This document shows positions 16,164 to 63,611 of a stretch of 64,000 nt of DNA, piece after piece; the stretch's first letter is position 1, and each line of letters begins with the position of its first letter. Source of the stretch: Candidatus Harrisonbacteria bacterium RIFCSPHIGHO2_02_FULL_42_16 (lineage in GTDB: Bacteria; Patescibacteriota; Minisyncoccia; UBA6257; 02-FULL-45-10c). The position numbers were made by a program, and so were the translations under genes. The notes under the pieces are model-generated. The model was given only the letters and a program-made list of their open reading frames with translations. It was not told where the DNA came from and made no database searches. The stretch lies in the NCBI GenBank assembly GCA_001818695.1, contig MHJG01000009.1:309-64308 (forward strand). Reading direction: 5' to 3'.

Positions 16164-16359
16164 TGATTTAATGAAGAGAGTAAATTTTTTAAAGCATCTT
16201 AAAAAGGAGAAATGTCTTCTTTTGCGGGAAGGCGCTAGGCACAGCGTCTTTTTTAATCCAAAAATCAGACAAACATCAACGGTTCCAAGACATAATGAAA
16301 TTAATAATTTTCTCGCCAGAAAAATTTGTCGCGATTTAGGAGTAAGAGAGGTAAAATAA
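16147..16359 (+). CDS. type II toxin HicA-like mRNA interferase
   Basis: LKHLKKEKCLLLREGARHSVFFNP..STVPRHNEI...ICRDLGV is a HicA/YcfA pattern with Gly-x-His. It overlaps hicB by 17 nt. Confidence 0.6.
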   Translation: MQFRFNDLMKRVNFLKHLKKEKCLLLREGARHSVFFNPKIRQTSTVPRHNEINNFLARKICRDLGVREVK

Positions 16360-16364
16360 TTTAT

Positions 16365-17255
16365 ATGAAGAAGTTATTGCTTATTGACGCCAATTCGCTT
16401 ATTCATCGGTGTTTTCACGCGCTTCCTCCGCTGACCACGCCTAAGGGTGAGCCGATTAACGCGGTGTACGGGTTGTCCAGCATTCTTTTGAAGATTTTGC
16501 GGGAGCACCAGCCGGATTATGTGGCGGCGGCTTTTGACCGGCCGGAACCGACTTTTCGAGACGAGATTTTTAAAGAATATAAAGCCCATCGTCCGCCGAC
16601 CGCCGATACTCTTGTGCCGCAGCTTAAAGAAGCCCACAAAACATTTGAAAAATTTGGAATCAAAGTGGTGGAAAAAGCCGGTTTTGAGGCGGATGATGTC
16701 GTGGGAACGTTGGCCGAGCGATTTAAGGATTCGGAAGCCCTTCGGCAAGCTCAGGGTGATGACTTTGAGCTCAAAGTCATCATATTCTCCGGCGACAAAG
16801 ATAATTTACAGCTTATAGACGACGACAGAGTAGTGGTGGAACTTTTGAAAACTGGCGTCAGTAAAACCGTTACTTATAACAAGGCATTTTTTCTCCAGAC
16901 CTACGGATTTTCTCCGGAGCAATTAGTGGATTATAAGGCGCTGGTGGGCGACGCTTCGGATAATATTCCGGGCGTGATGGGAATCGGCCCGAAGGGCGCG
17001 ACCGATTTAATTAAGGAATACGGCTCGGTAGAAAAAATTTATGAAGAAGTCGGCTTGATTTCCAAAAAGGTTTTGCAGGAAAAATTGGAAAAAAATCGCG
17101 ACAGCGCTTTTTTATCAAAAAAATTGGCAACGATAAAACGCGATGTGCCGTTGGAAATAAATTTGAATGACTTAAAACAAGGCAGAATGAGCAAGGAAGA
17201 ACTCAAAAAATACTTTGAAGAGTTGGGATTTAAGAGTTTGACAGAAAGATTGTAA
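16365..17255 (+). CDS. 5'-3' exonuclease (Pol I N-terminal FEN domain as a stand-alone ORF)
   Basis: LLIDANSLIHRCFHA..., FEADDVVGTLA, IFSGDKDNLQL, and a helix-hairpin-helix region. Start taken at MKKLLL (SD upstream). Confidence 0.85.
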   Translation: MKKLLLIDANSLIHRCFHALPPLTTPKGEPINAVYGLSSILLKILREHQPDYVAAAFDRPEPTFRDEIFKEYKAHRPPTADTLVPQLKEAHKTFEKFGIKVVEKAGFEADDVVGTLAERFKDSEALRQAQGDDFELKVIIFSGDKDNLQLIDDDRVVVELLKTGVSKTVTYNKAFFLQTYGFSPEQLVDYKALVGDASDNIPGVMGIGPKGATDLIKEYGSVEKIYEEVGLISKKVLQEKLEKNRDSAFLSKKLATIKRDVPLEINLNDLKQGRMSKEELKKYFEELGFKSLTERL

Positions 17256-18793: not shown

Positions 18794-20317
18794 ATGTTTG
18801 CAGATTTTAATCTTAAAGAAAAATTTAAAGAACTGAAAAAACAAGACAAGAAAATTCCAAAAGACCCCTCGGCCGCGCTCGGGGCAAGTTATTTTGATTT
18901 GGGCGTGGCATTTTGGATGCTTAATCCCGACGAAAAAGAATATACAGCGGAATTTTTAAGCAAGAAATATCTTAATAAAGAATACAACCCTTCGGTTGGC
19001 TCAGGGTTAAAGCAACTTTATGAAGTTGCTTTAAAAAAGTTAAAAGAATATAAATTGGAAGGGCTTTTTTATGATGTGGAAATGCCGCTGATTGAGGTAT
19101 TGGCGGAGATGGAATCGTTGGGCGTGAAGTTGAATGTGGGTGGCTTGAATAGCTTGGAAAAGAAATTAGAAAAAAATTTAAGCGAGCTGGCGAAGAAAAT
19201 TTATAAAGAAGCCGGCGCGCCGTTTAATATCAATTCGCCGAAACAGTTGGGAGAAATGCTTTTTCAAAAACTTGGCATTGACGCCGCTGGCGTTAAAAAA
19301 ACCAAAGGCGGCGCGATTTCTACCGACGTAGATACGCTTTTGACTATCAAGGACCGCCATCCGGTTGTTAAATATCTTTTGGAATATCGCGAATTATTCA
19401 AATTGCAAACAACTTATGTTCGGCCATTGCAGGCGCTCGCAGACAAAAAAGGCAGAGTGCGTACAACCTATATCCAAACCGGGACTTCTACCGGCCGGTT
19501 AAGTTCGCAGAACCCTAATTTACAAAATATACCGATTGGAAATAATTTAGCAACGGAATTGCGGAAATGTTTTGTGGCGGAAAAAGGATATTCGTTTATT
19601 TCTTTTGATTATTCGCAAATTGAATTGAGGGTATTAGCTTCGCTTTCCGGCGACCCCAAAATGATGGAAGCGTTTAATAATGATTTGGATATTCATAAAA
19701 TGACGGCGGCAAATGTTTTTAATAAACCGTTAAGAGAAGTTACGCCGGAAATGCGGCGGCTGGCGAAGACATTAAATTTCGGAGTGGTGTATGGAATGGG
19801 CGCGAACGCGTTTGCTAAAACCAGCGGTTTAAGCGTAACCGAAGCCCGTAAATTTATAGATGAGTATTTCAACGATTTTAAAAAAATAAAAGTATGGCAG
19901 GAAGAAATTAAAGCGCAGGCGCGGACTTTTGGTTATGTTACTAATCTAAATGGCCGCCGCCGATGGCTTTTGCAGGCGACCTCAATGTTCCGCGGAGAAG
20001 CCGCGGAAGCCGAACGGGCGGCAATCAATATGCCAGTGCAGGGATTGGCGGCGGATATTATTAAAATCGCGATGGTAAAAATATCAAAAGAAATTAAAAA
20101 ACAGAAATTAGAAAACAGCATAAAAATGCTTTTGACGATTCACGACGAATTGCTGTTTGAAATTAAGGACGAGGCGCTGGAAGAAGCCGTAAAAATTATT
20201 TCCGGAATAATGGAATCCGCTTATGAATTAGAAGTGTCGGTAAAAGTAACGGTTAAGGTTGGCAAGAACTGGGGAGAATTAAGCGCTTTTTTGAAAAGTG
20301 ATATTTTGATGATATAA
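18794..20317 (+). CDS. polA: DNA polymerase I, polymerase domain (with vestigial 3'-5' exo remnant) as a separate ORF
   Basis: Motif A DYSQIELR, motif B RRLAKTLNFGVVYG, motif C HDELLFE, O-helix. The N-terminal roughly 110 aa match only the end of the 3'-5' exo-like domain. Confidence 0.85.
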   Translation: MFADFNLKEKFKELKKQDKKIPKDPSAALGASYFDLGVAFWMLNPDEKEYTAEFLSKKYLNKEYNPSVGSGLKQLYEVALKKLKEYKLEGLFYDVEMPLIEVLAEMESLGVKLNVGGLNSLEKKLEKNLSELAKKIYKEAGAPFNINSPKQLGEMLFQKLGIDAAGVKKTKGGAISTDVDTLLTIKDRHPVVKYLLEYRELFKLQTTYVRPLQALADKKGRVRTTYIQTGTSTGRLSSQNPNLQNIPIGNNLATELRKCFVAEKGYSFISFDYSQIELRVLASLSGDPKMMEAFNNDLDIHKMTAANVFNKPLREVTPEMRRLAKTLNFGVVYGMGANAFAKTSGLSVTEARKFIDEYFNDFKKIKVWQEEIKAQARTFGYVTNLNGRRRWLLQATSMFRGEAAEAERAAINMPVQGLAADIIKIAMVKISKEIKKQKLENSIKMLLTIHDELLFEIKDEALEEAVKIISGIMESAYELEVSVKVTVKVGKNWGELSAFLKSDILMI

Positions 20318-21713: not shown

Positions 21714-22640
21714 GTGCCCGAACTTCCAGAAGTACAAACAATTGTTAATGATTTAAATAAGAAAATTATCGGGTGCCGGATAACCGGCGTTTGGTTTGAT
21801 TGGCCGAAAATGCTGAAAGACCCGTTAGACCAGCAGCGAAATAAGGTGGCGCATAAGCAGGTGGCGGTTTTTGAAAAAACAATTAAAGGAAAGAAAATTT
21901 TAAGCGTCCAGCGCCGGGCAAAAAACCTTTTATTTTCGTTATCAAATAATTTGATGATGCTCATTCACCTTAAAATGACCGGACATCTTCTTATAGGAAA
22001 GTGGAATGTAGAGAAGCGACAAGGTAAAGAAAAAGCAATTCCGATTGAGCCGAAAGAAGCAGTTAATGACCCATATAATCAGTACATTCATCTGATTTTT
22101 TATTTGGATAACGGGAAAATGCTGGCGTTTTCGGATTTGCGGAAGTTTGGAAAAGTTATTTTGGGAACTAAAGAGCAGATTGAAAATTTGCCGGAATTGC
22201 GTAAGCTGGGGCCAGAACCATTAGATAAGAGTTTTAAGTTTGAGACGTTTGTAAGTTTAATGAGGGCAGAAAAACGGAAGGTTAAACAAGTTTTGATGGA
22301 CCAGGAAGTGATTGCCGGAATCGGCAATATCTATTCCGATGATATTTTATGGAAAGCAAGAATTCATCCTTTTAAGCCGGCGAATAAATTGAGTGGCAAA
22401 GAAATAAGAGACCTGTATAAGGCGACGAAACAAATTTTAGTTAAAGCGTTAAAGCTTCGGGGCACTTCCACCAGTGATTATCGTGATACGGCTGGCAAAG
22501 AAGGCGGCTATACCGATTATCGTTTAGTTTATCAGCGGGAAGGTGAACCCTGCCAAAGATGCAAAACTAAAATTAAAAGAGTAAAAATAGGAGGGAGGTC
22601 GGCGCATTTCTGTTCTAGATGCCAGAAATTAGGTAGATAG
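21714..22640 (+). CDS. mutM: formamidopyrimidine-DNA glycosylase
   Basis: N-terminal PELPEV (catalytic Pro2/Glu3), H2TH, C-terminal zinc finger CQRC...CSRC. Confidence 0.9.
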   Translation: MPELPEVQTIVNDLNKKIIGCRITGVWFDWPKMLKDPLDQQRNKVAHKQVAVFEKTIKGKKILSVQRRAKNLLFSLSNNLMMLIHLKMTGHLLIGKWNVEKRQGKEKAIPIEPKEAVNDPYNQYIHLIFYLDNGKMLAFSDLRKFGKVILGTKEQIENLPELRKLGPEPLDKSFKFETFVSLMRAEKRKVKQVLMDQEVIAGIGNIYSDDILWKARIHPFKPANKLSGKEIRDLYKATKQILVKALKLRGTSTSDYRDTAGKEGGYTDYRLVYQREGEPCQRCKTKIKRVKIGGRSAHFCSRCQKLGR

Positions 22641-27974: not shown

Positions 27975-28183
27975 GATGTTGATAAAGTAAATTGAAACAA
28001 GAAGATTGATTTAAGAAAAGGAGATAAAAATGAGTAGGCGGGAAAATCCGATTCAAGCGGCTATTGAAAAAATTAAAGAAGCGGCTAAAACACTCACGAG
28101 TAGTGTTTTTTTGTTGGTTTGCCGAGCGAGAAATCAGTCATTACTTGATAATTTATTTAATTATTTGTGATATACTTATATTT

Positions 28184-28786
28184 ATGGCAACTAAACTTAC
28201 TCGCCGACAGCATTTAAAATATAAAATCTGCATTTCCGGAGCCGCGGACACCGGCCACTGCGCGATTGATGCGTCGGAAAAAGCCGAAGAAATGGGCCGG
28301 GAAATCGCCCGTCGGGGAATGGTATTGGTAACCGGCGCCACTGTCGGCATACCTTATTGGGCCGCTAAGGGAGCCAAAGAAGAGGGCGGAATTGTCATCG
28401 GGCTTTCGCCGGCCGCTTCGGAAGCCGCTCATGTTAAGTCCTATAAACTTCCCACGGATTATCATGATTTAATTATTTATACCGGTTTTGAGTATTCCGG
28501 CCGGAATTTGCTTTTGACCCGTTCCGCGGACGCAGTAATCAATATCTGCGGCCGGATGGGAACGCTTAACGAATTTACTATTGCTTTTGAAGACGAGAAG
28601 CCGATTGGCGTTTTGGAGGGCACCGGAGGAACCGCGGATGAACTTCGGGGAATTGTCGGGAAGATGCACCGCGGTCCCGGAAAAGTGGTATACTCAAAAG
28701 ACATAAAAGAATTGCTGGATAAAGTAGTGGCGGAAATAGACAAAGAAAAAAATAATAAAGGCGTCAGCAGATATACAAGGGGATAA
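28184..28786 (+). CDS. LOG / TIGR00725 family Rossmann-fold protein
   Basis: GGxGTxxE-like CGRMGTLNEF and a glycine-rich nucleotide-binding loop. Start taken at MATKLT (28184). Confidence 0.65.
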   Translation: MATKLTRRQHLKYKICISGAADTGHCAIDASEKAEEMGREIARRGMVLVTGATVGIPYWAAKGAKEEGGIVIGLSPAASEAAHVKSYKLPTDYHDLIIYTGFEYSGRNLLLTRSADAVINICGRMGTLNEFTIAFEDEKPIGVLEGTGGTADELRGIVGKMHRGPGKVVYSKDIKELLDKVVAEIDKEKNNKGVSRYTRG

Positions 28787-28808
28787 TAAGGTCGATATTA
28801 AATCTATA

Positions 28809-29114
28809 ATGAAGCGTATGTTAAAAAAATTATTAAAAGCGTTGGGTTTTTCTAAAAAAGTTTCAAGGCAGGACAAGCCGATTGGCGAAGTTACGCATTA
28901 TTATGGCAATTTAAAAGTTGCCATAGTCAGATTCAGTCAGGAAGTGCCGGCTGGCAAGAATGTTACTTTTCAGGGCGTTACTTCTGATTTTTCTCAAGAC
29001 CTTTCTTCAATGGAATTTGACCATAAGCCGGTTGTTTCCGCTCCGGCAGGAAAAGAAGTCGGCATTAAGGTTAAGGAGAAAGTCAGGGAAGGAGACAAAG
29101 TTTATTTGAATTAA
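28809..29114 (+). CDS. hypothetical small beta-barrel protein (EF-Tu domain-2-like pattern)
   Basis: GEVTHYYGNLKVAIVRF...AGKNVTFQG...GDKVY. Weak similarity only. Confidence 0.35.
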   Translation: MKRMLKKLLKALGFSKKVSRQDKPIGEVTHYYGNLKVAIVRFSQEVPAGKNVTFQGVTSDFSQDLSSMEFDHKPVVSAPAGKEVGIKVKEKVREGDKVYLN

Positions 29115-29116
29115 CC

Positions 29117-29575
29117 GTGGAGTATTTTGACCAGCATACTTTATCAATTTTTGGACGGCTGCTATTGGCGGCGGTTTTGGGCATTATTATCGGCATAGAA
29201 CGGGAATTAGCCCATAAATCCGCAGGAATGAGAACGCATTCTTTTGTCGCTTTGGGTTCGGCTTTGTTTTCCATTATTTCTATGTCGTTCAGCAGTCCCA
29301 CCGTTGACCCGACTAGAATCGCGGCTCAAATTGTAACCGGTATAGGTTTTTTAGGCGCGGGCATTATTATTTTTCATGATTCTCGGGTTCAGGGCCTGAC
29401 TACCGCCGCCGGCATCTGGGTGGCGGCGGCAATCGGAATGGCGATTGGATTTGGATTTTTAAAAATAGCGTTATTTACGGCCGCCCTAACCGTTTTTATT
29501 TTTGTCGTTGTCTGGCCGATAGAACAGCGTTTCGTAAAAAAATTCGCCAAAAATGAACGGAAAGATTTGGATTAG
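29117..29575 (+). CDS. MgtC/SapB family membrane protein
   Basis: IFGRLLLAAVLGIIIGIERE is the MgtC signature. Confidence 0.8.
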   Translation: MEYFDQHTLSIFGRLLLAAVLGIIIGIERELAHKSAGMRTHSFVALGSALFSIISMSFSSPTVDPTRIAAQIVTGIGFLGAGIIIFHDSRVQGLTTAAGIWVAAAIGMAIGFGFLKIALFTAALTVFIFVVVWPIEQRFVKKFAKNERKDLD

Positions 29576-29595
29576 GGAGGAACCAATTTTAATTT

Positions 29596-30723
29596 ATGTA
29601 TAAGAATATTATTCTGCCGGCCAGTATCTTGGCGGGAACAATTATCGGGGCAGGGATTTTTTCTCTGCCGTTTGTTTTTAATGCCGCCGGAATGCCCGCC
29701 GGCCTGTTCTATTTGTTATTTTTTTCCGTAATTTATATTTTTATCTATATTTTTTACGCCGATGTTATGTTAAGGACTTCGGGCGAGCACCGGTTTGTCG
29801 GCTATGCGAGGATATATTTTGGCAACTGGGGATTTTGGGCGGCGCTTTTATTCGGATTAGCCCAATTATTTTTTGTTTTGACGATCTATTTGATTCTGGC
29901 GCCCAGTTTTTCCGGATTATTTTTTCCGGACGATTATTTATCCCAGCTTCTGATTTTTTGGTTTCTTGGGTCAGCCGCGATTTTGTTTGACACCAAAAGA
30001 GTCGCTTCGCTGGAATTCATAATTGTGGCCGGAATTATCACAATTATTTTTTTGATTTTCGGTTTGGGCGCAAAAAGCGTTTTTTTCGTTAACTGGAGCA
30101 TTATTGGAGATTTTTCTTCTCGGAGCTTAGTTTTATTCGGGCCGGTTTTGTTCGCCTTATCTGGAAGTTTAGCGGTTCCGGAAGTGGTAAGTTATTTTAG
30201 GGAGTCAGGAATATCAATTTCTTTTTTAAAAAAGTCATTAATTCTCGGCAGTTTTTTGCCGGCGTTCATTTATGCCGCTTTTGTAGTTGGGATTTTGGGA
30301 TTATCGCCGAAAGTGTCTGAAGACGCGGTTTCCGGATTGGTTGGTTATGCGCCCTCATATATCTTGGTGTTCTTGGGGATTTTGGGATTTTTATCCCTAA
30401 TCAGTTCTTATATCGTGGCGGGACTTAATGCGAGAAGGGTTTTGCAATATGATTTGAATTTATCCGGCCGGTTGAGCAGATTTTTGGTAATTTTAATTCC
30501 TCTTGCCCTTTATTTTTTAGGATTTCAGAATTTTCTTGGATTGGTTACTTTTGTGGGGGCGGTATTTTTGCCGTTGGAAAGCATTTTTATAATATTTATG
30601 TGGTTGAGAGCCGATAAAGGGGCGGAAGCGCCGCCGATTTTAGTGGGCAATTTTGTTAGAACATCTATTCCGTTTCTGATTTTAGTTTTTTTAACAGGAT
30701 TGATTTATGTAATAATAAAATAA
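29596..30723 (+). CDS. amino-acid permease-like polytopic membrane protein (HAAAP-like)
   Basis: About 11 TM helices, N-terminal GAGIFSLP motif. Confidence 0.55.
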   Translation: MYKNIILPASILAGTIIGAGIFSLPFVFNAAGMPAGLFYLLFFSVIYIFIYIFYADVMLRTSGEHRFVGYARIYFGNWGFWAALLFGLAQLFFVLTIYLILAPSFSGLFFPDDYLSQLLIFWFLGSAAILFDTKRVASLEFIIVAGIITIIFLIFGLGAKSVFFVNWSIIGDFSSRSLVLFGPVLFALSGSLAVPEVVSYFRESGISISFLKKSLILGSFLPAFIYAAFVVGILGLSPKVSEDAVSGLVGYAPSYILVFLGILGFLSLISSYIVAGLNARRVLQYDLNLSGRLSRFLVILIPLALYFLGFQNFLGLVTFVGAVFLPLESIFIIFMWLRADKGAEAPPILVGNFVRTSIPFLILVFLTGLIYVIIK

Positions 30724-32620: not shown

Positions 32621-34054
32621 ATGGAGCTTTTAGACGGGATTTTAATTTTTCTGCTGGCGCTGGCCGGCGCCGTTGTTTTATTTGTTTTGAGCGCGTTGGC
32701 TTGGATTGTCCGCAATTTTTTGAGATGGTCTTTCGTATTTTTATTTTTTTATGCCGTTATCATATGCTATAAAGCGCCATTTCAGAGCATTTATGTTCCA
32801 GAACCTGCGGCAGTTCCTGATAGATTATTCCGTTACGAGCAGGATAATTTTGGAGCTCAAATAAAAGCTGGTTTCGCGAAGCGGGATATTACTCCGCCGA
32901 GATTTTCTTGGCTGGCTGGTTATTACCCGCCGCACCCGGGAATTTTTATCCGGGAATGGCTTTGGGTAAAGAGTTTGGCGCTGAAAGACAGCGGTGGAAA
33001 CCGAATTGTAATTGTCTCCTGCGATTTAATCGGGCTTTTGCCGGATGAAATAGAAAAAATAAAAAATTTGGTGAAAAAAGCCGCGCCGGATTCCATATTT
33101 ATAAGCGCTACTCATACTCATTCCGGTCCGGACACCATAGGGCTTTGGGGAATACCGCCGTTTACCGGAAAAAATGAGAAATATATGGAATTTTTGCGCC
33201 GGCAAATAGCGGAAGTAATTGATGAATCAGTTTCTGATTTAAGCCAAGGGACAATCCGTTTTGGAGAAGGAGAATTTTCCGGATATGTTGGTGGACGCGA
33301 AGGAAATCCCCCGGACCCGGCTGTTTCGGTTATGCAGGTTTTGCTTTCGTCCGGCATTCCGGTAACTCTGGTTAATTTTGCCAGTCATGCGGATGTAATG
33401 AAAAGTTTTCGCATTTCCGCTGACTTTCCTTATTATCTTTATGAACGGTTGGGAAAATTGACGGGCGGAGAAGTTATTTTTATTCCGGGCGCCATTGGCG
33501 GAGTTCAGCCGAAAAGAAACGGAAATAAAAATAACCAAGACCGGTTTTTGGAAAGAGGATTGGGAGAAGATTTAGCTGACAGAGTATATAAAATTATGGA
33601 AAAGCCGATTGTTTCCGAAAACGCCAGTATTGCCGTAAAACAGGTTAAGATAATGGCTTCGCTTGAAAATAAAAAATTTTCTCAGGCGGCACGAATTGGA
33701 ATAGTATCTGATTTAGAAATTCCTATAAAAATTTCAGGGAAAATTAGCAATGATTTGTTTTATGCCGTTGAAGTGAAAGCAGTGGAAGCTCGGCTGGCAC
33801 AAATTAAAATAGGACCGGCGGAAATTATAACTATTCCCGGAGAATTGTTTCCGAGCATCTGGTGGGCGATAAAGCCGAAAATGCGCGGCAAACCGAAATT
33901 TATTTTTGGATTGACCAACGGCGAGCTTGGTTATATTCTTTCTCCAAAAGATTTTGATTCCGGGAAACATCCATATCATCAAGGAATGTCAATAGGAAAA
34001 GAATCGGGAGATTCCGTTGAAAAAGCTTTAGAGATACTATTAGACGGAAAATAA
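32621..34054 (+). CDS. membrane-anchored hydrolase, neutral/alkaline ceramidase-like (tentative)
   Basis: N-terminal TMs then GFAKRDITPP...SATHTHSGPD. Assignment is weak. Confidence 0.4.
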   Translation: MELLDGILIFLLALAGAVVLFVLSALAWIVRNFLRWSFVFLFFYAVIICYKAPFQSIYVPEPAAVPDRLFRYEQDNFGAQIKAGFAKRDITPPRFSWLAGYYPPHPGIFIREWLWVKSLALKDSGGNRIVIVSCDLIGLLPDEIEKIKNLVKKAAPDSIFISATHTHSGPDTIGLWGIPPFTGKNEKYMEFLRRQIAEVIDESVSDLSQGTIRFGEGEFSGYVGGREGNPPDPAVSVMQVLLSSGIPVTLVNFASHADVMKSFRISADFPYYLYERLGKLTGGEVIFIPGAIGGVQPKRNGNKNNQDRFLERGLGEDLADRVYKIMEKPIVSENASIAVKQVKIMASLENKKFSQAARIGIVSDLEIPIKISGKISNDLFYAVEVKAVEARLAQIKIGPAEIITIPGELFPSIWWAIKPKMRGKPKFIFGLTNGELGYILSPKDFDSGKHPYHQGMSIGKESGDSVEKALEILLDGK

Positions 34055-34112
34055 TCCCGCTTGGCGGGATTTTTTATTGCGTAAAATTAAGACGGGTATT
34101 ATAGTAAGATTA

Positions 34113-35378
34113 ATGAAATTTTTCGCTGACCTGCATATTCATTCTAAATACTCCCGCGCGGTTTCCAAGAGCATGGTTCTTGAAGAATTAGACCGCTGGG
34201 CGGATGATAAGGGAATTTTGGTAATGGGTACCGGTGATTTTACTCATCCGGCTTGGTTTAAGGAATTAAAACAGAAATTGGAACTGGCCGAGCCGGGGCT
34301 TTTTAAGCTAAAAAAGAAATTTAAATTGAAAACAATAAAAGGCACTTTTGCGGAAACCCGTTTTATGCTGACGGTGGAAATTTCCTGCATTTATACCCGC
34401 GGCGGCAGGGGGCGACGCGTGCATCATATTGTTTTTGCGCCGGATATTGAGACAGCAGAAAAAATCAACACCCAGCTTTCTTGGATTGGCAATTTGGCTT
34501 CGGACGGCCGTCCGATAATCGGTCTTGATTCCGAAGAGCTGGCTAAAATTGTTTTTAATGCTAATCCGCGTGCGGTTATTGTTCCGGCGCACGTCTGGAC
34601 GCCGTGGTTTTCGGTATTCGGCTCAATGTCCGGATTTGATTCGTTGGAAGAATGTTTCGGGGAATACGCCAAGAATATCTTTGCTATTGAAACCGGGCTT
34701 TCTTCTGACCCGCAGATGAATTGGCGGGTGAAAAGTTTGGATAAAATCGCTTTAATTTCCAATTCGGATTCTCATAGCTTGCAGCGCATCGGACGGGAGG
34801 CGAATGTTTTTGACACGGAATTATCTTATTCAGGAATTATGGACGCAATAAAATCACGCAATCCTAAAAAATTTTTAAATACCATAGAATTTTTTCCGGA
34901 AGAAGGAAAGTATCATTATGACGGGCATCGGGCTTGCGGCGTGGTGATGCCACCGAAAGAAAGCAAAAAGTTGAAAGATATATGTCCAAAGTGTGAAAAA
35001 AAGATGACACTTGGGGTAGTTTATCGAGTGGATCAACTTGCTGATTCTAAGAGGCCGGAAGGATATCAAGACCCAAAAAGAGTTCCCTATAAAAATTTAG
35101 TAACTTTGGATTCTATAATTGGAGAAGCGTTGGATGTCGGAAAGGCGGCGAAATCGGTGATGAAAGAATATGAAAAATTAATTAAGAATTTTAAGTCCGA
35201 ATTTAATATTTTGCTTAATGCTTCGGTTAAGGAAATTGCGCTTGCGTCCAAGCCGGAAATTGCCGAAGGGGTGGCAAGGGTGCGAGGCGGAAAATTAACC
35301 ATTAAGCCCGGCTATGACGGCGAGTTTGGCGTAATTAAGATATTTTCTGACGAAGACAGGAAAAAAATAGGCAGCTAA
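34113..35378 (+). CDS. PHP-domain nuclease, endonuclease Q (EndoQ)/TIGR00375-like
   Basis: ADLHIHSKYSRAVSK, GTGDFTHP, RRVHHIVFAP, PAHVWTPW, SNSDSHS...IGREANVF, and a zinc ribbon CPKCEKK, all colinear with the archaeal EndoQ motifs as I recall them. Confidence 0.55.
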   Translation: MKFFADLHIHSKYSRAVSKSMVLEELDRWADDKGILVMGTGDFTHPAWFKELKQKLELAEPGLFKLKKKFKLKTIKGTFAETRFMLTVEISCIYTRGGRGRRVHHIVFAPDIETAEKINTQLSWIGNLASDGRPIIGLDSEELAKIVFNANPRAVIVPAHVWTPWFSVFGSMSGFDSLEECFGEYAKNIFAIETGLSSDPQMNWRVKSLDKIALISNSDSHSLQRIGREANVFDTELSYSGIMDAIKSRNPKKFLNTIEFFPEEGKYHYDGHRACGVVMPPKESKKLKDICPKCEKKMTLGVVYRVDQLADSKRPEGYQDPKRVPYKNLVTLDSIIGEALDVGKAAKSVMKEYEKLIKNFKSEFNILLNASVKEIALASKPEIAEGVARVRGGKLTIKPGYDGEFGVIKIFSDEDRKKIGS

Positions 35379-35388
35379 AACGTGTTTT

Positions 35389-38300
35389 TTAGATTTTTTT
35401 GACCCCAATCCAAATTGGCTCTTCGTTAAGTTTTGAATTTAATTCCGCGTCAAATTTTCCGGTTTTTTTAAATTCAATTGATTTTGCGCCCACTTCTTTT
35501 TTAAGAAAATTCGCATTTTTTTCCAGCGTGGTCTTATACGCCTGGGTATCAATCATTAGCGCGATGGTGTCTTTGGGAATATAATTCGCGTCATGCCTGA
35601 GGCCCTGCACCATTCGTGCCAATTCTCTTAACAGTCCCTCTTCCTGAAGTTCGGGCGTAATTTTAAAATCCAGATTAACTTCATTTTTAATAACCATATT
35701 CCAATTAACTTTTTTTACGTTCACTTCATTTTTTATAACTTCTATCAATTCCGTGTCTCTTGCGTCAATTTTTGAACTTTTAATTTCCAGTGTTTGAAGC
35801 GGCTGGCGGACTTTAACGCCTTTTTCAGCGCGGAGCGCTAAGGCCAGGCCGGAAATTCGCCTAACTTCCTCCATTTTTTCCAAAAGCGAATAATCCATTT
35901 CTTTTTCATCGGCTTTGGGCCAGGCATCTAAATGTACCGAGTTTTTAATTTGCTGATTTTTATTTTTTGTTAAAGAAAGATAAAGAGCTTCAGCAAAGAA
36001 CGGCGTGAACGGAGCGATTAATTTGCTCAAAACAAAAAGCGAATAATAAAGGGTTTCGGAAGCCGATTTAAAGTCATTTTTATTTTTCGGTTTCTGCAAT
36101 CGGCTTCGGGAGCGCCGGATATACCACCTAGAAAGGTCGTCTACGAAGATTTCAATTGACTTGGCAGAGCCGCTAATGTCGTATTTTTCTAAATTTTCGG
36201 TTGCGTCCGCGGCGGTTTTATTAAGTTTTGATATAATCCAGCGGTCTAAAATATTTGTGCTTGGAGTCGGAAGCCGGGAGTTAGAAGTTTTTTCCGCGTA
36301 GGTATTCCAGAATACGAATGAATTATAAATAATCATTATAAATTTTCGCAAGGTTTTTCCCAAATCTAATTCGTCAAACACTTTCGGTTCTCCCGGAATC
36401 GTTTGGGTATAAAAATACCAGCGCAGGGTGTCTGCTCCGTATTTGTCCATCATTTCCCGCGGATTTATTGCATTACCTCTGGATTTAGACATTTTTTTTC
36501 CGAATTTGTCCAAAATATGGCCTTGAGTAACCACATTTAAATAGGGCGTGTTTTTTTTCAAAAGAGTGGCAATCGCCAGCAGGGAGTAGAACCAGCCGCG
36601 AGTTTGGTCGATTCCTTCGCTGATATAATCTGCCGGAAAAGCGAGCTGCTTATCAATTAAATCTTTATTTTCAAATGGGTAATGCCATTGGGCGTAGGGC
36701 ATGGCGCCGGAATCAAACCAGATATCGGCAACCTCTTTGACCCTTATCATTTTTCCGTCGCATTTAGCGCATTTTAAATGAATTTTATCCATATAGGGCC
36801 TATGTAAATCTAATTCTCCAACAGGATTATACGGCCAGTTATGCAATTCGGTTTTTTTAGCTATGCCATTAACTTTTATATAATTTAGCTTTAAAATTTC
36901 TTCATTGGATAATCCCCGCATCGCTCCTTCCAAAACCCAAAGCGGGTCGCCATGACTGACAATCAAAATATTTTTTCCATTATAACGGGAATTGATGTCT
37001 ATAATCGCTTCCAGCATTCTTTTTTTCACTTCATTTAAATTTTCTCCGCCCGGACAAATTTTAGTAAAGCGTTCCAGGTCGTTTTTGTGAAACTTATGGT
37101 GTTCTTCAACCGGGCGCCAATTAAAAATTCCGCAGTTTATTTCCGAAAGCCGTTTATCTATTATTACTCTGGATTTTGTGATTTTGGCGGCTATTTTTGC
37201 GGTTTCTTTGGTGCGGTTATACGGGGAAGCAAAAATAAAATCCAGTTTTTTATTGCCAAGCTCCTTTTTTAAATTTATAGCCGCCGATTCCGCGTTTTTT
37301 TTGCCTTTTATGGTAAGCCGGGAAATGTTTTTTCCGTGTTCCGGTCCGGAGGCGATAAGGTTGTTTAAATTATGTTCCGCTTCTCCATGCCGAAGTAGCC
37401 AAAAATTATTTTGGGAATATCTTAATTTGTCCAAATCCTCCAAACTTCCGATTACTTCCGTATGTCCACACTGTTCTTTTGTTCGCATGGGCGCGTTCGC
37501 ATTTCGCGAGGCCTTAGCCGAGCGAGCGCCATTCGCGTGCTGCCAGATTGGCAACGGCGTGCCCCAATAGCGATTTCTGGAAATTGACCAGTCCTTTACT
37601 TCCTTAAGCCATTCGCCGAACCGCCCCTGTTTTATATGTTCCGGAACCCAGTTAATTTTTTTGCCGTTGGCAATGATTTCATCGCGAAGCTTGCTCATTT
37701 CTATAAACCAGGAAAATTTCGCCATATAAAGAAGAGGGGTGTCGCATCGCCAGCAGAACGGATATTCGTGTTCATAACTGCCCGCTTTTAAAAGCGCTTT
37801 GGTTTTTTCTAAATGGCTGACAATATCCCGGTCGGCTGTTTTGGCCGGTTTGCCGGCTCCGGGCAAACCCTTTGCAACCATACCCCTGTCATCTACTGTA
37901 ATTGGGATATCATTAATTTTTAACTTTTCGCTTTTAACGCTTAATACTTCCTGCATAAGTTTCATATCGTTTTCGCCGAAAGCCGGAGCGATATGTACCA
38001 AGCCGGTGCCTTCTTCAGTAGAAACGAAGTCGGCGCCGCATACTTTAAAAAATTTGCTGTTTTTTTGCCAAGCCCCTTTTACGTTAAATAGCTGTTTATA
38101 TTTTAAGCCGATTAGTTTTTTTCCGGACATTTTTTCAATCACTTCATATTTAACATTATCTATTGTCGGCGGAGCGTTATATGACCACAAATATTCATTG
38201 CCTATCTTATATTTGGTATAGGTAAGCTTCGGATTAACCGCAATAGCGACATTTGCCGGCAAAGTCCACGGCGTGGTGGTCCAAATCAAAAGGTATTCAT

Positions 38301-38991
38301 TACCTTTTGATTTGCCCGCCGAAGCTTTAGTGAGGGAGGGTTTTAATTCAAATTTTACATATACTGACGGGTCTTTCACCTTATGATACGCGCCAGGCAT
38401 TCCAAGTTCGTGGCTGGAAAGAGGCGTTTGGCAGCGGGTGCAGTAGGGAACAATTTTAAATGATTGGGTTAGCAGGCCGCGCTTGGCGATTTCTTTGAAA
38501 ATCCACCACAAACTTTCTATATAATCTGGCTTATAAGTAATATAAGGATTTTTTAAGTCCAGCCAAAAGCCGATTCGGTCCGTAAATTTTTCCCATTCGT
38601 CCTGATATTTCCAAACCGACGCCTTGGCTTTTTCATTGAATTCCGCGATGCCGAATTTTTCAATTTCTTGTTTATTTTTCAAACCCAGCTCTTTTTCCAC
38701 CTCAATTTCTACCGGCAATCCTTGCGTGTCCCAGCCGGCTTTCCGGCGGACAAAAAATCCGCGCATGGTTTTATACCGGCAAATAATATCTTTAAAGGCG
38801 CGGCCTTCCGCGTGGCCCATGTGCGGCTGGCCGTTGGCTGTCGGTGGCCCTTCAAAAAACCTGAATACTTTCCGCGTTAATCCGCGCATATCCGCAGTTT
38901 GAGTTTTCTCAAAAATCTTATTTTCCTTCCAGAATTTAAGGACTTTTTCCTCTATCTCCGGCAATTTAAATTCTTTAAGCTTTTGTAACAT
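35389..38991 (-). CDS. ileS: isoleucyl-tRNA synthetase (type 2) with an in-frame histidine-phosphatase (PGAM-like) domain insertion
   Basis: HMGH (PHMGHAEGRA), CP1 editing domain, KMSKS (KMSKSRGN), anticodon-binding C-terminus. 1200 aa. Insert of about 237 aa lies between RYWGTPLPIWQHANG and ELDLHRPYMD. Confidence 0.9.
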   Translation of the reverse strand: MLQKLKEFKLPEIEEKVLKFWKENKIFEKTQTADMRGLTRKVFRFFEGPPTANGQPHMGHAEGRAFKDIICRYKTMRGFFVRRKAGWDTQGLPVEIEVEKELGLKNKQEIEKFGIAEFNEKAKASVWKYQDEWEKFTDRIGFWLDLKNPYITYKPDYIESLWWIFKEIAKRGLLTQSFKIVPYCTRCQTPLSSHELGMPGAYHKVKDPSVYVKFELKPSLTKASAGKSKGNEYLLIWTTTPWTLPANVAIAVNPKLTYTKYKIGNEYLWSYNAPPTIDNVKYEVIEKMSGKKLIGLKYKQLFNVKGAWQKNSKFFKVCGADFVSTEEGTGLVHIAPAFGENDMKLMQEVLSVKSEKLKINDIPITVDDRGMVAKGLPGAGKPAKTADRDIVSHLEKTKALLKAGSYEHEYPFCWRCDTPLLYMAKFSWFIEMSKLRDEIIANGKKINWVPEHIKQGRFGEWLKEVKDWSISRNRYWGTPLPIWQHANGARSAKASRNANAPMRTKEQCGHTEVIGSLEDLDKLRYSQNNFWLLRHGEAEHNLNNLIASGPEHGKNISRLTIKGKKNAESAAINLKKELGNKKLDFIFASPYNRTKETAKIAAKITKSRVIIDKRLSEINCGIFNWRPVEEHHKFHKNDLERFTKICPGGENLNEVKKRMLEAIIDINSRYNGKNILIVSHGDPLWVLEGAMRGLSNEEILKLNYIKVNGIAKKTELHNWPYNPVGELDLHRPYMDKIHLKCAKCDGKMIRVKEVADIWFDSGAMPYAQWHYPFENKDLIDKQLAFPADYISEGIDQTRGWFYSLLAIATLLKKNTPYLNVVTQGHILDKFGKKMSKSRGNAINPREMMDKYGADTLRWYFYTQTIPGEPKVFDELDLGKTLRKFIMIIYNSFVFWNTYAEKTSNSRLPTPSTNILDRWIISKLNKTAADATENLEKYDISGSAKSIEIFVDDLSRWYIRRSRSRLQKPKNKNDFKSASETLYYSLFVLSKLIAPFTPFFAEALYLSLTKNKNQQIKNSVHLDAWPKADEKEMDYSLLEKMEEVRRISGLALALRAEKGVKVRQPLQTLEIKSSKIDARDTELIEVIKNEVNVKKVNWNMVIKNEVNLDFKITPELQEEGLLRELARMVQGLRHDANYIPKDTIALMIDTQAYKTTLEKNANFLKKEVGAKSIEFKKTGKFDAELNSKLNEEPIWIGVKKI

Positions 38992-61235: not shown

Positions 61236-61304
61236 AGAAAATGATATAATTAACAATGGATTATTATGCCTGTCAAATTGTGATATTGAAATTATAACAT
61301 TACG

Positions 61305-63611
61305 ATGCCTCATCAGAAAATAAATTTGTTAAAACCGCGTTCGCTGAAAAACAGCCCCTTTCCATATTGGGCCAGAATTTTAGCGTTTATTTCATCGGCA
61401 ACGCTCGCGACTTTATTTATCGTTTCGGTTATCGCCGCCAATACCACTATCGGCAATAATATTGAAACCAGCGGCACTTTGACAGTGGGGGGCGCTACTT
61501 CAACTATTGCCACTGCTTTGGGGGTAGCCACCACTTCCCCGTGGGGCATTTTTTCAGTGGAAATGGGCACAGTGAATCCCTCTTTTGTCGTATCTAATAA
61601 CGGCAGTTCTACTCCTTCTTTTTGGATTGGCGGCGTTAATCAAAACGGTTATATCGGCATTGGCACCACTTCCCCCAATCAAGCGCTGACAGTTGTTGGG
61701 AATATTTACAATACCGGAATTATTGGAATAGGAACAACAACCACCGACAGGGCTTTGTCAGTCCATGGCAATGCTTTATTTTCCGGCACTGTTATGGTGG
61801 CTAATTTAATCGCTACCGGGACGTTGACTTTAAGCGGCACTGGCACGACAACTTATTCAGGGGCATTGGGAGTGGCGAGCAGTACTCCTTGGGGCACCTT
61901 ATCTGTAGAAATGGAAGTCAACAACCCTTCTTTTATAGTTTCTAATGCCGGCAGTTCCAGTCCTTCTTTATGGGTTGGCGGAGTCAATCAAAATGGTTAT
62001 ATTGGTATCGGCACTTCTACGCCTAATGAAGTGTTGACCGTAGCCGGAAACATTGCTAATTTAGCCGCCACTTCAACAATGAAGTTAAGAGGTAGCGCAA
62101 CTCTTGGCAATACCCCAACCTCAATTAAAGTTGCGGGTCGTTATGCTTACGTGATAGATCGTGGCACCAGTGATTTAAGAATTTTTGACGTGTCCAGCAC
62201 TACCCCGGCTTTTGCCGGTTCAATAGGTTTAGACCTTACCCCTCAAGATATATATATTTCCGGCCGATACGCTTATGTAGTAGATGGTGCCAGCGATGGC
62301 CTTAAAATTATTGATATTTCTAATCCAGCCGCTTTATCAATAATGAGTTCTACCAGTTTAGCAACAATTGGGGACGGGAGCAGTAATCCGTTGGGGATTT
62401 ATATTTCTGGCCGATATGCGTATGTGGTAGATAGTGGCGATGGTTATCTTAAAATTATTGATGTTTCTGATCCGGTTAGGCCATCAATCGTATCTATGTT
62501 GACGGCGGGTTCTGGACCGACGAGCGTATTTGTGTCCGGCCGTTACGCTTATGTGGCTGGTCAACAAAATAGTAGTAGTATAATTATAGATATATCCGAC
62601 CCATTTAATCCAAAAAATATGGGAAGCATCACTAGAACATCTCAGGGCATCAATCTTGACATTAAAATTTCGGGAAACTATGCCTATGTAAATGATAATC
62701 CGAATTTACGAATTATAGATGTTTCTGACCCAGCTAATTCGCAATCAATAGCAACTATATCTTTGGGCGTCAGCCCCACCTTATCTAATTTACAGGTATC
62801 CGGACGCTATGTTTATGTATTTAATTCTGGAGATGGTAAAAAAGAACTTATTGCCATTGACGTTTCTATACCGGATTCACCGGTGATTGTTTCCAGATTA
62901 AATATCGCCGTAGGGGGAACTTCTCCGTATTTATATGTTTCTGGTCGATATGCTTATGTAGCAAATGGCACCAATTTTTCAGTAATAGATATTTCCGGCA
63001 TAGAAACTACTTCTGCCATTATTCATTCTTTAGAGGCCGGCAATCTTCAGGTTAGGAGCGATGTTTTAGTTGGTAATCAGCTTACAGTAACCGGCGGATT
63101 AACTGTTGGGCAGGGCGGAATCTTATCCACTGGGCCATTGGCAGTCAGCGCCACCACTTCCAAAAGTGTTATTTTAGGCGGTTTGATAATCGGCACTTCT
63201 ACTCCGGCTACCACCTCGCCAAACTCGCTTGCTTTTTATCAGTCCGTTTTTTTGGTGGAAGCTACTTCTTCTGCGTCTATTCCATTTACTATCCGAGGCG
63301 CCGGCACCCAGTTAGGAAATTATTTGCAAATTCAAAGTTCTACCAATACCAGTCAGTTGGTGCTTAGCAGTTCTGGAAGGTTGGGTATCGGCACTTCTAC
63401 TCCGGCAACGGAATTAGCAATTTCTTCTTCTGCCACTACCACTATTTATCTTGATTCCTCCGTTACTACCAAAGGCAGTTGTATCCAATTAAAGTCAGCT
63501 ACCAGTTCGGCGGTTTATCATCTGTACATTGGCGCCAATGATGTGGCATCCACTACCTCTGACGGCCGGTCCGGCTTAATTCCGATATTTGAATTTGGCG
63601 CTTGCAAATAA
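61305..63611 (+). CDS. LVIVD-repeat beta-propeller surface protein with N-terminal TM and GIGTTSP (tail-fibre-like) repeats
   Basis: About 7 repeats of SGRYAYVVD..DGLKIIDISNP.. (LVIVD consensus). Upstream IGIGTT(S/T)PNxALTVxGNI repeats. Confidence 0.7.
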   Translation: MPHQKINLLKPRSLKNSPFPYWARILAFISSATLATLFIVSVIAANTTIGNNIETSGTLTVGGATSTIATALGVATTSPWGIFSVEMGTVNPSFVVSNNGSSTPSFWIGGVNQNGYIGIGTTSPNQALTVVGNIYNTGIIGIGTTTTDRALSVHGNALFSGTVMVANLIATGTLTLSGTGTTTYSGALGVASSTPWGTLSVEMEVNNPSFIVSNAGSSSPSLWVGGVNQNGYIGIGTSTPNEVLTVAGNIANLAATSTMKLRGSATLGNTPTSIKVAGRYAYVIDRGTSDLRIFDVSSTTPAFAGSIGLDLTPQDIYISGRYAYVVDGASDGLKIIDISNPAALSIMSSTSLATIGDGSSNPLGIYISGRYAYVVDSGDGYLKIIDVSDPVRPSIVSMLTAGSGPTSVFVSGRYAYVAGQQNSSSIIIDISDPFNPKNMGSITRTSQGINLDIKISGNYAYVNDNPNLRIIDVSDPANSQSIATISLGVSPTLSNLQVSGRYVYVFNSGDGKKELIAIDVSIPDSPVIVSRLNIAVGGTSPYLYVSGRYAYVANGTNFSVIDISGIETTSAIIHSLEAGNLQVRSDVLVGNQLTVTGGLTVGQGGILSTGPLAVSATTSKSVILGGLIIGTSTPATTSPNSLAFYQSVFLVEATSSASIPFTIRGAGTQLGNYLQIQSSTNTSQLVLSSSGRLGIGTSTPATELAISSSATTTIYLDSSVTTKGSCIQLKSATSSAVYHLYIGANDVASTTSDGRSGLIPIFEFGACK

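Follow-up and report, generated by a model that had tools for sequence, protein, structure and literature searches.

The locus and its surroundings

Endonuclease Q (EndoQ) is a DNA-repair nuclease that nicks DNA beside deaminated or missing bases. In the window, by which is meant the whole 64-kb stretch of DNA that was analysed, a complete coding sequence of the EndoQ family is located at positions 34113-35378 of the + strand, as delineated by the list of open reading frames, phmmer, the TIGR00375 profile, an AF2 model and Foldseek. The frame is unbroken from the ATG at 34113 to the stop codon at 35376-35378 and specifies 421 amino acids. An alternative in-frame start, the TTG at 34077, lies upstream and would yield a protein of 433 aa. 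The ATG was preferred, since the homolog consensus begins with MKF and a hairpin at 34053-34071 overlaps the longer start.

This hairpin, together with the T-run that follows it, forms a predicted terminator-like element on the + strand (34053-34076), identified by a consensus scan and characterized by an 8-bp stem with five G-C pairs followed by TTTTAT. It is placed between the upstream gene, whose stop is at 34054, and the EndoQ start, and its position directly upstream suggests independent transcription of the EndoQ gene. A sigma-70 promoter read by eye at 34077-34105 (TTGCGT-17-TATAGT) was not reported by the consensus scan and is not claimed here. The G+C content of the gene is 0.41, matching that of the window.

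By residue mapping onto the P. furiosus enzyme (PfuEndoQ), the predicted protein comprises three domains with approximate boundaries, all encoded on the + strand: an N-terminal PHP nuclease domain of about residues 1-251 (34113-34865), a Zn-binding domain of about residues 252-330 carrying a His-Cys3 knuckle (34866-35102), and a C-terminal helical domain of about residues 331-421 (35103-35375), which aligns with PfuEndoQ residues 304-400 and bears the precomputed Pfam label PF27218 MJ0043_C, an entry newer than the local Pfam copy.

The neighbours of the gene are housekeeping genes, namely MurB, IleRS, ArgRS and tRNA-Arg, and partial synteny around EndoQ is common to related Parcubacteria. The bacterial nature of the host, as proposed in the earlier note, is borne out by tmRNA, SmpB, DnaA and DnaN (the last at 5075-6181) in the window and by an identical protein from Candidatus Harrisonbacteria RIFCSPLOWO2_02_FULL_41_11. 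Two further genes on the + strand are putative downstream partners, both genetically unlinked to EndoQ: a stand-alone 5'-3' exonuclease or flap endonuclease at 16326-17255 (Pfam 5_3_exonuc_N, E 5.8e-50; 5_3_exonuc, E 7.9e-35), and a family A DNA polymerase reduced to its polymerase domain at 18794-20317 (DNA_pol_A, E 7.4e-141), a candidate for resynthesis. Neither a ligase nor a UDG or AP endonuclease was encountered within the 64-kb window, which leaves the pathway context dependent on housekeeping genes unlinked to EndoQ.

The earlier note had also set the gene alongside mutM. A mutM/fpg gene is indeed present at 21714-22640 on the + strand (Pfam Fapy_DNA_glyco, H2TH and zf-FPG_IleRS; N-terminal (M)PELPEV), but it is unlinked to EndoQ rather than adjacent, being situated 11.5 kb upstream with around a dozen housekeeping genes and a tRNA in between. 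The lesion class of MutM differs as well, comprising oxidised purines. An operon link between the two genes was rejected in view of this distance, the intervening genes and the terminator-like hairpin.

In 16 of 81 EndoQ loci, a PolX gene is found on the same strand at 0.4-5 kb from EndoQ (15 downstream, 1 upstream). This proximity is taken as lineage synteny of uncertain significance. In the window itself, neither PolX nor UvrD was detected by tblastn.

Profile, fold and residue evidence

Among PDB sequences, phmmer recovered PfuEndoQ (5zb8/7k30) with an E-value of 3.8e-49, aligning query residues 5-413 with chain residues 5-385. The best profile was TIGR00375 (E 4.1e-52), covered over positions 2-374 of 374. 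Its score of 177.8 bits falls below the curated cut-off of 326.6 bits, which makes the protein a homolog and family member and not an equivalog of the seed sequences, that is, archaeal and Bacillus EndoQ. The AF2 model reached a pLDDT of 84.9 and a pTM of 0.87, and when compared by Foldseek with 5zb8/7k30 it gave TM values of 0.80-0.86 (E 2e-33) over about 421-428 alignment columns. The next matches were generic PHP proteins, with query-normalised TM of 0.35 at most. Low-confidence loops of the model (residues 164-170, 262-266 and 401-404) adjoin, by alignment, active-site or DNA-binding elements, and specificity could therefore differ.

The motifs from which the earlier note had recognized the family are all present and colinear: ADLHIHSKYSRAVSK at aa 5-19 (34125-34169), GTGD at aa 39-42, RRVHHIVFAP at aa 101-110, PAHVWTPW at aa 158-165, SNSDSHSLQRIGREAN at aa 216-231, and CPKC at aa 291-294 (34983-34994). 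A single correction concerns the spacing between HS and GRE in the fifth of them, which is four residues and not three. Inteins of homologous proteins interrupt the motifs at PAH|VWTPW, ETGLS|SD and SNSDS|H, as would be expected of functionally critical sites.

The metal ligands and the lesion pocket of EndoQ have been defined previously (PMC5961232; PMC8307549). Residue mapping places the metal ligands H8, H10, E89, H104, H160, D219 and H221 of the query upon H8, H10, E76, H84, H139, D193 and H195 of PfuEndoQ, where mutation of E76, H84, H139 or D193 nearly abolishes activity (PMC5961232). The pocket is equally present, with T163, E193, G195, L196, S197 and N217 corresponding to Pfu T142, E167, G169, L170, S171 and N191. 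Each of these ligand and pocket residues is kept in 136-150 of 150 diverged 50%-identity representatives. Pfu L168, which contributes to the pocket through its main chain only, is replaced by Thr in the query.

The closest characterized likeness is P. furiosus EndoQ itself (PF1551; PDB 5zb8, 7k30-7k33), a member of the archaeal "family 1". It shares with the query the PHP/Zn-binding/C-terminal helical architecture over the full length, at 33% identity, and the residues of the metal site and the lesion pocket are the same in both proteins, as are the GKYH motif and the CPxC half of the knuckle. The query differs from it in having His rather than Cys as first Zn ligand, in ending without a C-terminal PIP box, and in two short stretches inserted into the PHP domain near residues 66-100; its host, a mesophilic, small-genome bacterium, is also unlike P. 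furiosus. Bacillales EndoQ (B. pumilus and B. subtilis, active in vitro; PMC5961232), represented in this comparison by Brevibacillus laterosporus WP_031414379, is a stand-alone protein of some 390-420 aa, like the query, and has the catalytic and pocket residues in common with it, as well as a Zn knuckle in the colinear position. However, the two share just 25% identity, less than the query shares with PfuEndoQ; the Bacillales protein has a Cys4 knuckle and the insertion "GGTMSGKAVKITAS" after HIH, and its genomic context, nudix-endoQ-spoIIM-fur-xerD, differs from that of the window. These differences place the window protein in another bacterial clade.

The local Pfam scan returned PHP_C alone, at an E-value of 0.0016 and under the cut-off. 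This weak match, as well as the sub-threshold TIGR00375 score, would suit a generic PHP phosphoesterase resembling histidinol phosphatase or RNase AM, in which DNA nuclease activity specific for lesions would be absent. Proteins of that class (TM0559, 2anu; BAD_1165, 3e0f; RNase AM, 7ug9; the PHP domain of Pol III alpha) do have a PHP barrel with His/Asp/Glu metal ligands in common with the query, but they possess neither a Zn-binding nor a C-terminal helical domain and reach TM values of only 0.26-0.35 at about 13% identity. The EndoQ match, on the other hand, extends through the Zn knuckle and every one of the three domains, the query retains the pocket residues specific to EndoQ, and the precomputed PF27218 label agrees, which leaves a generic phosphoesterase highly improbable. 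The identity proposed in the earlier note, an EndoQ-like PHP nuclease, has thus held in the two comparisons it had called for: TIGR00375 is the best profile, if below its cut-off, and PfuEndoQ provides the best structures and an end-to-end alignment in which the Zn-finger region is free of gaps. The best match is not a generic PHP protein lacking this finger, which the note had named as the outcome that would overturn its reading.

The sequence and the model together make it very probable that 34113-35378 encodes a full-length, three-domain, stand-alone bacterial EndoQ homolog that is apparently active, its activity being a prediction. The family is already known, bacterial members included, and the window gene is an ordinary, mis-annotated and slightly reduced member of it.

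The mis-annotation is found in the public record, in which the identical protein is named "DNA helicase UvrD" at NCBI and several homologs are named "DNA helicase II / PcrA" at JGI. Were these names correct, the product would be a UvrD-type DNA helicase. The 421-aa protein has neither a UvrD-helicase or UvrD_C domain nor a match to a Walker motif, and the name is accounted for by annotation transfer from the EndoQ-UvrD fusions described below. Judged by domain content, the helicase name is a mis-annotation that is already refuted, and there is next to no chance that it is right. Newer NCBI annotation of close homologs reads "endonuclease Q family protein", and the practical outcome for the window is a corrected annotation, from "DNA helicase UvrD" to endonuclease Q family nuclease.

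Zinc knuckle, C-terminus and distribution

The predicted four-ligand Zn site is formed by H272 (34926-34928), C275 (34935-34937), C291 (34983-34985) and C294 (34992-34994), with the spacing H272-x2-C275...C291-x2-C294, aligned without gaps with C249, C252, C268 and C271 of PfuEndoQ. All four residues are invariant among 31 close homologs. The first position is His in 145 of 150 diverged representatives and Cys in P. furiosus and Brevibacillus, and His as the first predicted Zn ligand is a signature of the clade. With His272 as first ligand, the knuckle is not the Cys4 site of archaeal "family 1".

The other difference concerns the C-terminus. Archaeal EndoQ carries a C-terminal PIP box through which it binds PCNA (PMC4858679). 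In the window protein, which terminates in ...IFSDEDRKKIGS, the PIP box (Qxxhxxaa) is missing. Of 80 GTDB relatives, 56 carry a C-terminal QxxLF, compared with a per-position background of about 1e-4. The window protein ends in ...GYDGEFGVIKIFSDEDRKKIGS with no clamp-binding motif, and the beta-clamp motif QxxLF/QLxLF is likewise missing in its nearest relatives (L001, L002, P0004, P0006 and P0017). Translation past the EndoQ stop codon revealed no QxxLF that could be reached by read-through. Compared with its relatives, the window copy has lost the predicted beta-clamp motif in which most of them end, and it probably acts without clamp tethering.

The EndoQ literature describes an essentially archaeal enzyme that has "a limited number" of homologs in bacteria. 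The earlier note had likewise regarded EndoQ as rare in bacteria, which is true only for the cultured bacteria covered by the papers of 2015-2018 (PMC4357722; PMC5961232). Two narrow peptide patterns alone recovered the family from at least 593 GTDB species-representative genomes; clustering of the family at 90% identity gave at least 8000 clusters, and at 50% identity 1024 (E <= 1e-30). The carriers are mostly Patescibacteria, and include Omnitrophota, Nitrospirota and others. The published EndoQ classification includes bacterial "families 2 and 3", and Shiraishi 2017 is reportedly the key paper on the bacterial families. Reports that connect EndoQ or TIGR00375 with Patescibacteria or CPR were not found in the searchable literature.

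The description of the repair route as "archaeal-type" was overstated, given a large, diverged bacterial clade with a His-Cys3 knuckle of its own and a gene whose G+C content equals that of the window. Window-like composition and placement of the protein in a bacterial clade give no sign of a recent archaeal transfer.

A nuclease of the EndoQ fold might also serve mainly in defence, restricting foreign DNA, such as that of phages, which contains uracil or other non-canonical bases. Several observations speak against this role. PADLOC gave no relevant match for the protein, only a weak and irrelevant one to Cas10; the neighbours are the housekeeping genes listed above, in partial synteny with related Parcubacteria; 50,697 phage records held no homolog; and the sole plasmid homolog belongs to a 733-kb Brevibacillus replicon, where its context is of chromosomal type. 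The replication-clamp motif of most relatives, moreover, suits a function in replication or repair. Defence is accordingly an improbable main function, and repair is the reading retained below.

Predicted incision and processing of the nick

Following the P. furiosus enzyme, the window protein would most likely bind and bend duplex DNA, and an abasic sugar or a deaminated base (uracil, hypoxanthine or xanthine) would be flipped out into a narrow pocket adjoining the metal site. Cleavage would then fall directly 5' of the lesion, where hydrolysis of the phosphodiester bond would generate a 3'-OH and a lesion-bearing 5'-phosphate, and by the same analogy no glycosylase would be required for this incision. 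To complete repair, the nick would serve as the start of strand-displacement synthesis, after which the 5' flap would be removed and the strand ligated, with the PolA and the 5'-3' exonuclease/FEN of the window as candidate partners. We infer substrate range, cleavage position and these downstream steps, the first two purely from conserved residues by analogy. The active EndoQ enzymes of B. pumilus and B. subtilis set a precedent for a functional bacterial EndoQ (PMC5961232; PMC6202378). Identity to the characterized enzymes is low (33% to Pfu, 25% to the Bacillales type), and a search of the accessible literature returned no assayed enzyme from the His-Cys3 clade.

A different fate of the same nick is suggested by gene fusions. 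The nearest 50%-identity representatives are mostly proteins of about 1000-1200 aa, from uncultivated bacteria, in which an EndoQ module within the first ~420 aa, 48-55% identical to the query and sharing its His-Cys3 knuckle, is followed by UvrD-helicase, UvrD_C and UvrD_C_2. A full SF1 UvrD/PcrA helicase is thus added, as is a QLxLF clamp motif at the very end, and the query has neither. Gene fusion is a classical sign of a functional link, and the stand-alone gene could be the split form of these fusions, the EndoQ nick being processed in trans by a UvrD/PcrA-type helicase instead of Pol I/FEN, with the nicked lesion strand unwound in the way that follows incision during mismatch or nucleotide excision repair. 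The fusions terminate in QLxLF, and P0124 bears a relic of it, "QISFF", at the junction. Against this, the tblastn search for UvrD-like genes in the window was negative, and a UvrD-like ORF lies within 6 kb in only 4 of 80 related loci. All 120 of 120 close relatives and all 80 of the 80 best GTDB loci are stand-alone, and at least one EndoQ-UvrD fusion is encoded on a 4.79-Mb contig, which is not a Patescibacteria genome. Processing by a helicase in trans is on balance unlikely for the window gene, and Pol I/FEN completion remains the preferred reading; the two routes can coexist and are not mutually exclusive.

More widely, and only as a tentative proposal that is on present evidence doubtful, the His-Cys3 clade may constitute a major bacterial nucleotide-incision repair system undiscussed in the searchable literature, usually clamp-tethered, repeatedly fused to UvrD, and in streamlined genomes replacing the UDG/AP-endonuclease branch of base excision repair. 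The clamp-less form of Harrisonbacteria would then be derived and replication-independent. If the clade is active, glycosylase-independent incision beside uracil or hypoxanthine would count among the common repair routes of bacteria, above all of Patescibacteria with their small genomes, and the UvrD fusions would hint at the processing of the nick, which the EndoQ papers leave unsettled. These wider features, namely the His-Cys3 knuckle, the clamp motif and the UvrD fusion, concern the clade and not specifically the window gene.

Identity of the protein and its gene

The assignment of the 421-aa protein encoded at 34113..35378 (+) to the endonuclease Q (EndoQ) family is right. All the EndoQ motifs listed in the earlier note were found in the same linear order: ADLHIHSKYSRAVSK (aa 5-19), GTGD (aa 39-42), RRVHHIVFAP (aa 101-110), PAHVWTPW (aa 158-165), SNSDSHSLQRIGREAN (aa 216-231) and CPKC (aa 291-294). 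The pattern SNSD.HS...GRE is present with a corrected spacing, as four residues, not three, separate HS from GRE. In a phmmer search of all PDB sequences, the Pyrococcus furiosus enzyme (PfuEndoQ; 5zb8, 7k30-7k33) was matched at E 3.8e-49, query residues 5-413 aligning with chain residues 5-385, thus near end to end and without gaps at the Zn site; no other PDB sequence scored under E 0.7. The NCBIfam profile TIGR00375 was matched over its entire length (2-374 of 374 positions, E 4.1e-52) with a score of 177.8 bits, which lies below the curated equivalog cut-off of 326.6. A Pfam scan gave a sub-threshold match to PHP_C as its sole result, and a newer Pfam model, PF27218 (MJ0043_C), is recorded for the protein and all its relatives. 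An AlphaFold2 model built from 31 sequences (mean pLDDT 84.9, pTM 0.87) matched 5zb8/7k30 in a structure search with TM 0.80-0.86 and E 2e-33, and the next structural matches, generic PHP phosphoesterases, reached TM 0.26-0.35 only. A generic PHP phosphoesterase, the outcome that would have counted against the earlier claim, is therefore excluded by domain content and fold, EndoQ being the best match by profile, sequence and structure.

The NCBI record of an identical protein is named 'MAG: DNA helicase UvrD [Candidatus Harrisonbacteria bacterium RIFCSPLOWO2_02_FULL_41_11]'. A UvrD helicase is excluded on the same grounds of domain content and fold: Pfam and NCBIfam scans found no helicase domain in the 421-aa protein. 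Close homologs already carry the name 'endonuclease Q family protein' in newer NCBI annotation, so assignment to this family is not new; the gene is an ordinary, mis-annotated member of a known enzyme family.

The ORF is single and uninterrupted, and begins with ATG. An in-frame TTG at 34077 is a possible alternative start that would add 12 residues; ATG 34113 is preferred because the consensus of 30 aligned homologs, MKF(I/F)ADLHIHS, begins at this Met and because a terminator-like hairpin (34053-34071) with a T-run, directly past the stop of the upstream gene, occupies the preceding stretch. That upstream gene (32621-34054, +) encodes a 477-aa protein with hydrophobic segments near its N-terminus, whose one domain match, to the neutral/alkaline ceramidase N-terminal domain, falls below threshold (E 8.5e-5, 21.8 bits vs a cut-off of 32.1). 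Ten bases 3' of EndoQ lies the end of a convergent isoleucyl-tRNA synthetase (IleRS) gene, and the EndoQ gene therefore looks monocistronic. No terminator-like hairpin was found between the two stop codons (35376-35391), so that, given the 10-base gap, the two transcripts would overlap or terminate within the opposite gene.

The G+C content of the EndoQ gene (0.41) is the same as that of the remainder of the window, which is clearly bacterial and origin-proximal, with rnpA, yidC, jag, dnaA, dnaN, tmRNA and smpB among its genes. An SLOG/LOG-like gene, mgtC and a Trp/Tyr-type permease gene upstream (28064-30723) are also found close to EndoQ in 8-18 of the 81 related loci, which indicates partial synteny among Parcubacteria, not a functional link.

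Active site, lesion pocket and zinc knuckle

In PfuEndoQ, the metal ligands are H8, H10, E76, H84, H139 and D193, with H195 nearby; the lesion pocket is formed by H139, T142, E167, L168, G169, L170, N191 and D193; and activity is almost abolished by E76Q, H84A, H139A and D193N (PMC5961232). Thymine and adenine are kept out by H139, G169 and S171 (PMC8307549). By aligning the query with PfuEndoQ and 150 diverged representatives, the counterparts of the metal-site residues were mapped to H8, H10, E89, H104, H160, D219 and H221, and those of the pocket to T163, E193, T194, G195, L196, S197 and N217, each found unchanged in 136-150 of the 150. T194 replaces Pfu L168 at a position with a main-chain contact only. 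Inteins with LAGLIDADG homing-endonuclease domains occur in four homologs (P0121, P0122, P0154 and P0152, the last with two), and interrupt catalytic or pocket motifs ahead of query residues ~160 (PAH|VWTPW), ~197 (ETGLS|SD) and ~221 (SNSDS|H).

The Cys4 Zn site of PfuEndoQ (C249, C252, C268, C271; PMC5961232) aligns without gaps with H272, C275, C291 and C294 of the query, the first ligand being His where Pfu and a Bacillales-type enzyme have Cys. As H272 is invariant among 31 close homologs and His stands at this position in 145 of the 150 diverged representatives, it is not an error of the window copy. His-Cys3 is a standard Zn-binding set. We interpret it as this clade's version of the Pfu structural site, with Zn binding predicted from the ligands.

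A broad bacterial clade with helicase fusions

The statement that EndoQ is rare in bacteria, repeated in the earlier note, did not hold: at least 8000 90%-identity clusters matched in a word-indexed search, all at E <= 1e-5, and an exhaustive search of 50%-identity representatives returned 3735 clusters at E <= 1e-3, 1024 of them with E <= 1e-30. When one genome per GTDB species was scanned with just two narrow peptide patterns, at least 593 EndoQ stretches were confirmed. The best 80 of these loci are mostly from Patescibacteria (Paceibacterota, Nealsonbacteria, Staskawiczbacteria, Portnoybacteria, Gribaldobacteria and others), and about 24 are labelled otherwise (Omnitrophota, Nitrospirota/Thermodesulfovibrionales, Planctomycetota, Ignavibacteria, Thermodesulfobacteriota/Syntrophaceae and one Gammaproteobacteria MAG), with 53-57% identity to the query. 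Published statements of bacterial rarity reflect the cultured genomes then known; no link of EndoQ or TIGR00375 to Patescibacteria/CPR was found in the literature searched.

Biochemical evidence for bacterial EndoQ comes from B. pumilus and B. subtilis (PMC5961232, PMC6202378). In pairwise BLASTP comparisons, the query is 33% identical to Pfu (183 bits) and 25% identical to the Brevibacillus laterosporus protein (119 bits), a Bacillales-type enzyme with the gene context nudix-endoQ-spoIIM-fur-xerD that is itself 32% identical to Pfu. This places the window protein outside the bacterial clade with biochemical evidence, in a separate one marked by the His-Cys3 knuckle, UvrD fusions and frequent clamp motifs. 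A published classification of EndoQ recognises one archaeal family (1) and two bacterial ones (2 and 3) (PMC5961232); as Desulfovibrio homologs were mentioned in 2015-2016 papers (PMC4357722, PMC4858679) and Desulfobacterota MAGs are among the members of the clade, it may correspond to one of the two bacterial families.

Among the nearest 50%-identity representatives, proteins of ~1000-1200 aa form the majority, their first ~420 residues being an EndoQ module 48-55% identical to the query and the remainder a complete UvrD/PcrA helicase (UvrD-helicase, UvrD_C and UvrD_C_2 domains). In JGI these are named 'DNA helicase II / PcrA', and the name has evidently passed from the fusions to stand-alone EndoQs. 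One fusion comes from a contig of 4.79 Mb, which places at least some of them in non-CPR bacteria; another has a housekeeping neighbourhood of gyrA, aspS and transporter genes. Fusions (P0123-P0270; loci L081 and L082) outnumber every other form in the set of 50%-identity representatives and have QLxLF C-termini, and in P0124 the EndoQ/helicase junction retains a vestige of a clamp-like motif (QISFF). No discussion of such fusions was found in the literature searched. Together with the breadth of the clade in uncultivated bacteria, they are what goes beyond routine annotation, at the level of the clade and not of the window gene.

Predicted repair route and genomic setting

EndoQ cleaves immediately 5' of the lesion, leaving 3'-OH and 5'-phosphate ends (PMC4357722). 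Lesion-specific incision as in PfuEndoQ is the best-supported reading for the window protein, judged from the modelled fold, the active-site and pocket residues and the Zn-knuckle ligands: a dU, dI, dX or AP sugar would be flipped into the pocket and the bond immediately 5' of it hydrolysed to 3'-OH and 5'-phosphate. Strand-displacement synthesis, flap removal and ligation would then follow, as proposed for archaea (PMC4357722). Plausible partners are a stand-alone 5'-3' exonuclease/FEN (16326-17255, +) and a 507-aa family A polymerase with the polymerase domain only (18794-20317, +), both housekeeping genes unlinked to EndoQ; Pol I appears to be split between them. The two genes are separated by 1.5 kb, in which a PaaX-like gene is encoded on the opposite strand. 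In 16 of the 81 related loci, a gene for PolX with a C-terminal PHP domain (~560-650 aa) shares the strand of EndoQ at a distance of 0.4-5 kb. It is downstream of EndoQ in 15 of them (L001, L002, L009, L011, L018, L019, L021, L023, L033, L034, L036, L042, L044, L050 and L072) and upstream in L054. The two nearest GTDB relatives of the window gene, L001 and L002, are among these loci; no PolX was found in the window. The ORFs scanned in these 64 kb, a part of the genome, included no UDG, Xth, Nfo, Nfi or Nth.

Helicase-coupled processing of the nick is a live alternative, confined to the downstream steps: the EndoQ-UvrD fusions offer a lead in which the nicked strand would be removed by the helicase. 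No UvrD-like sequence was found anywhere in the window.

The earlier note had placed EndoQ alongside mutM and taken this as a sign of an alternative excision route. The mutM gene is real (21714..22640), but 11.5 kb separates it from EndoQ, with ruvA, a Mur ligase, a beta-CASP nuclease, the LOG-like gene, mgtC, the permease, tRNA-Arg, an ArsR regulator, murB and the ceramidase-like gene between. MutM acts on oxidised purines, a different lesion class, and its presence is uninformative about an EndoQ route.

A C-terminal PIP box links archaeal EndoQ to PCNA, which stimulates the enzyme, and beta-clamp motifs were noted at the C-termini of bacterial homologs (PMC4858679). In agreement with the latter, QxxLF occurs within the last eight residues of 56 of the 80 best GTDB relatives, with a looser variant in 9 more (background ~1e-4 per position in neighbouring ORFs), and a C-terminal clamp motif also in 70/120 close homologs and 85/121 long fusions. 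A role in defence against uracil-containing phage DNA, proposed for Bacillus EndoQ enzymes (PMC8307549), is not supported here, given this replication-clamp motif in most relatives, the housekeeping context of the gene, and the lack of a relevant PADLOC match or any phage homolog found for the window EndoQ. The window copy itself ends in GVIKIFSDEDRKKIGS before its stop codon, without QxxLF, and translating onward revealed no hidden motif. Its nearest relatives, L001 (81%), L002 (77%), P0004, P0006 and P0017, also lack it, and P0014, 82% identical in the alignment, retains it (...DSQNSLF); the absence is a lineage-specific loss. Thus, the window EndoQ probably does not use the canonical mode of binding to the clamp, whose gene, dnaN, is at 5075-6181.

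The neighbouring IleRS (1200 aa; 35389-38991, -) carries, between the two halves of its class I catalytic domain, a complete histidine-phosphatase domain of the PGAM/PhoE/PspA-like type with an RHGE motif (~36862-37434, aa 530-703; Pfam His_Phos_1, E 1.4e-28; best PDB match phosphoserine phosphatase 4ij5, E 7.5e-10), an unusual insertion in an essential enzyme. Elsewhere in the window, a 924-aa protein (58539-61313, -) combines an intein-like Hint/PT-HINT domain near its N-terminus with C-terminal CarboxypepD_reg domains, and adjoins the gene of a 768-aa LVIVD-repeat protein (61305-63611).
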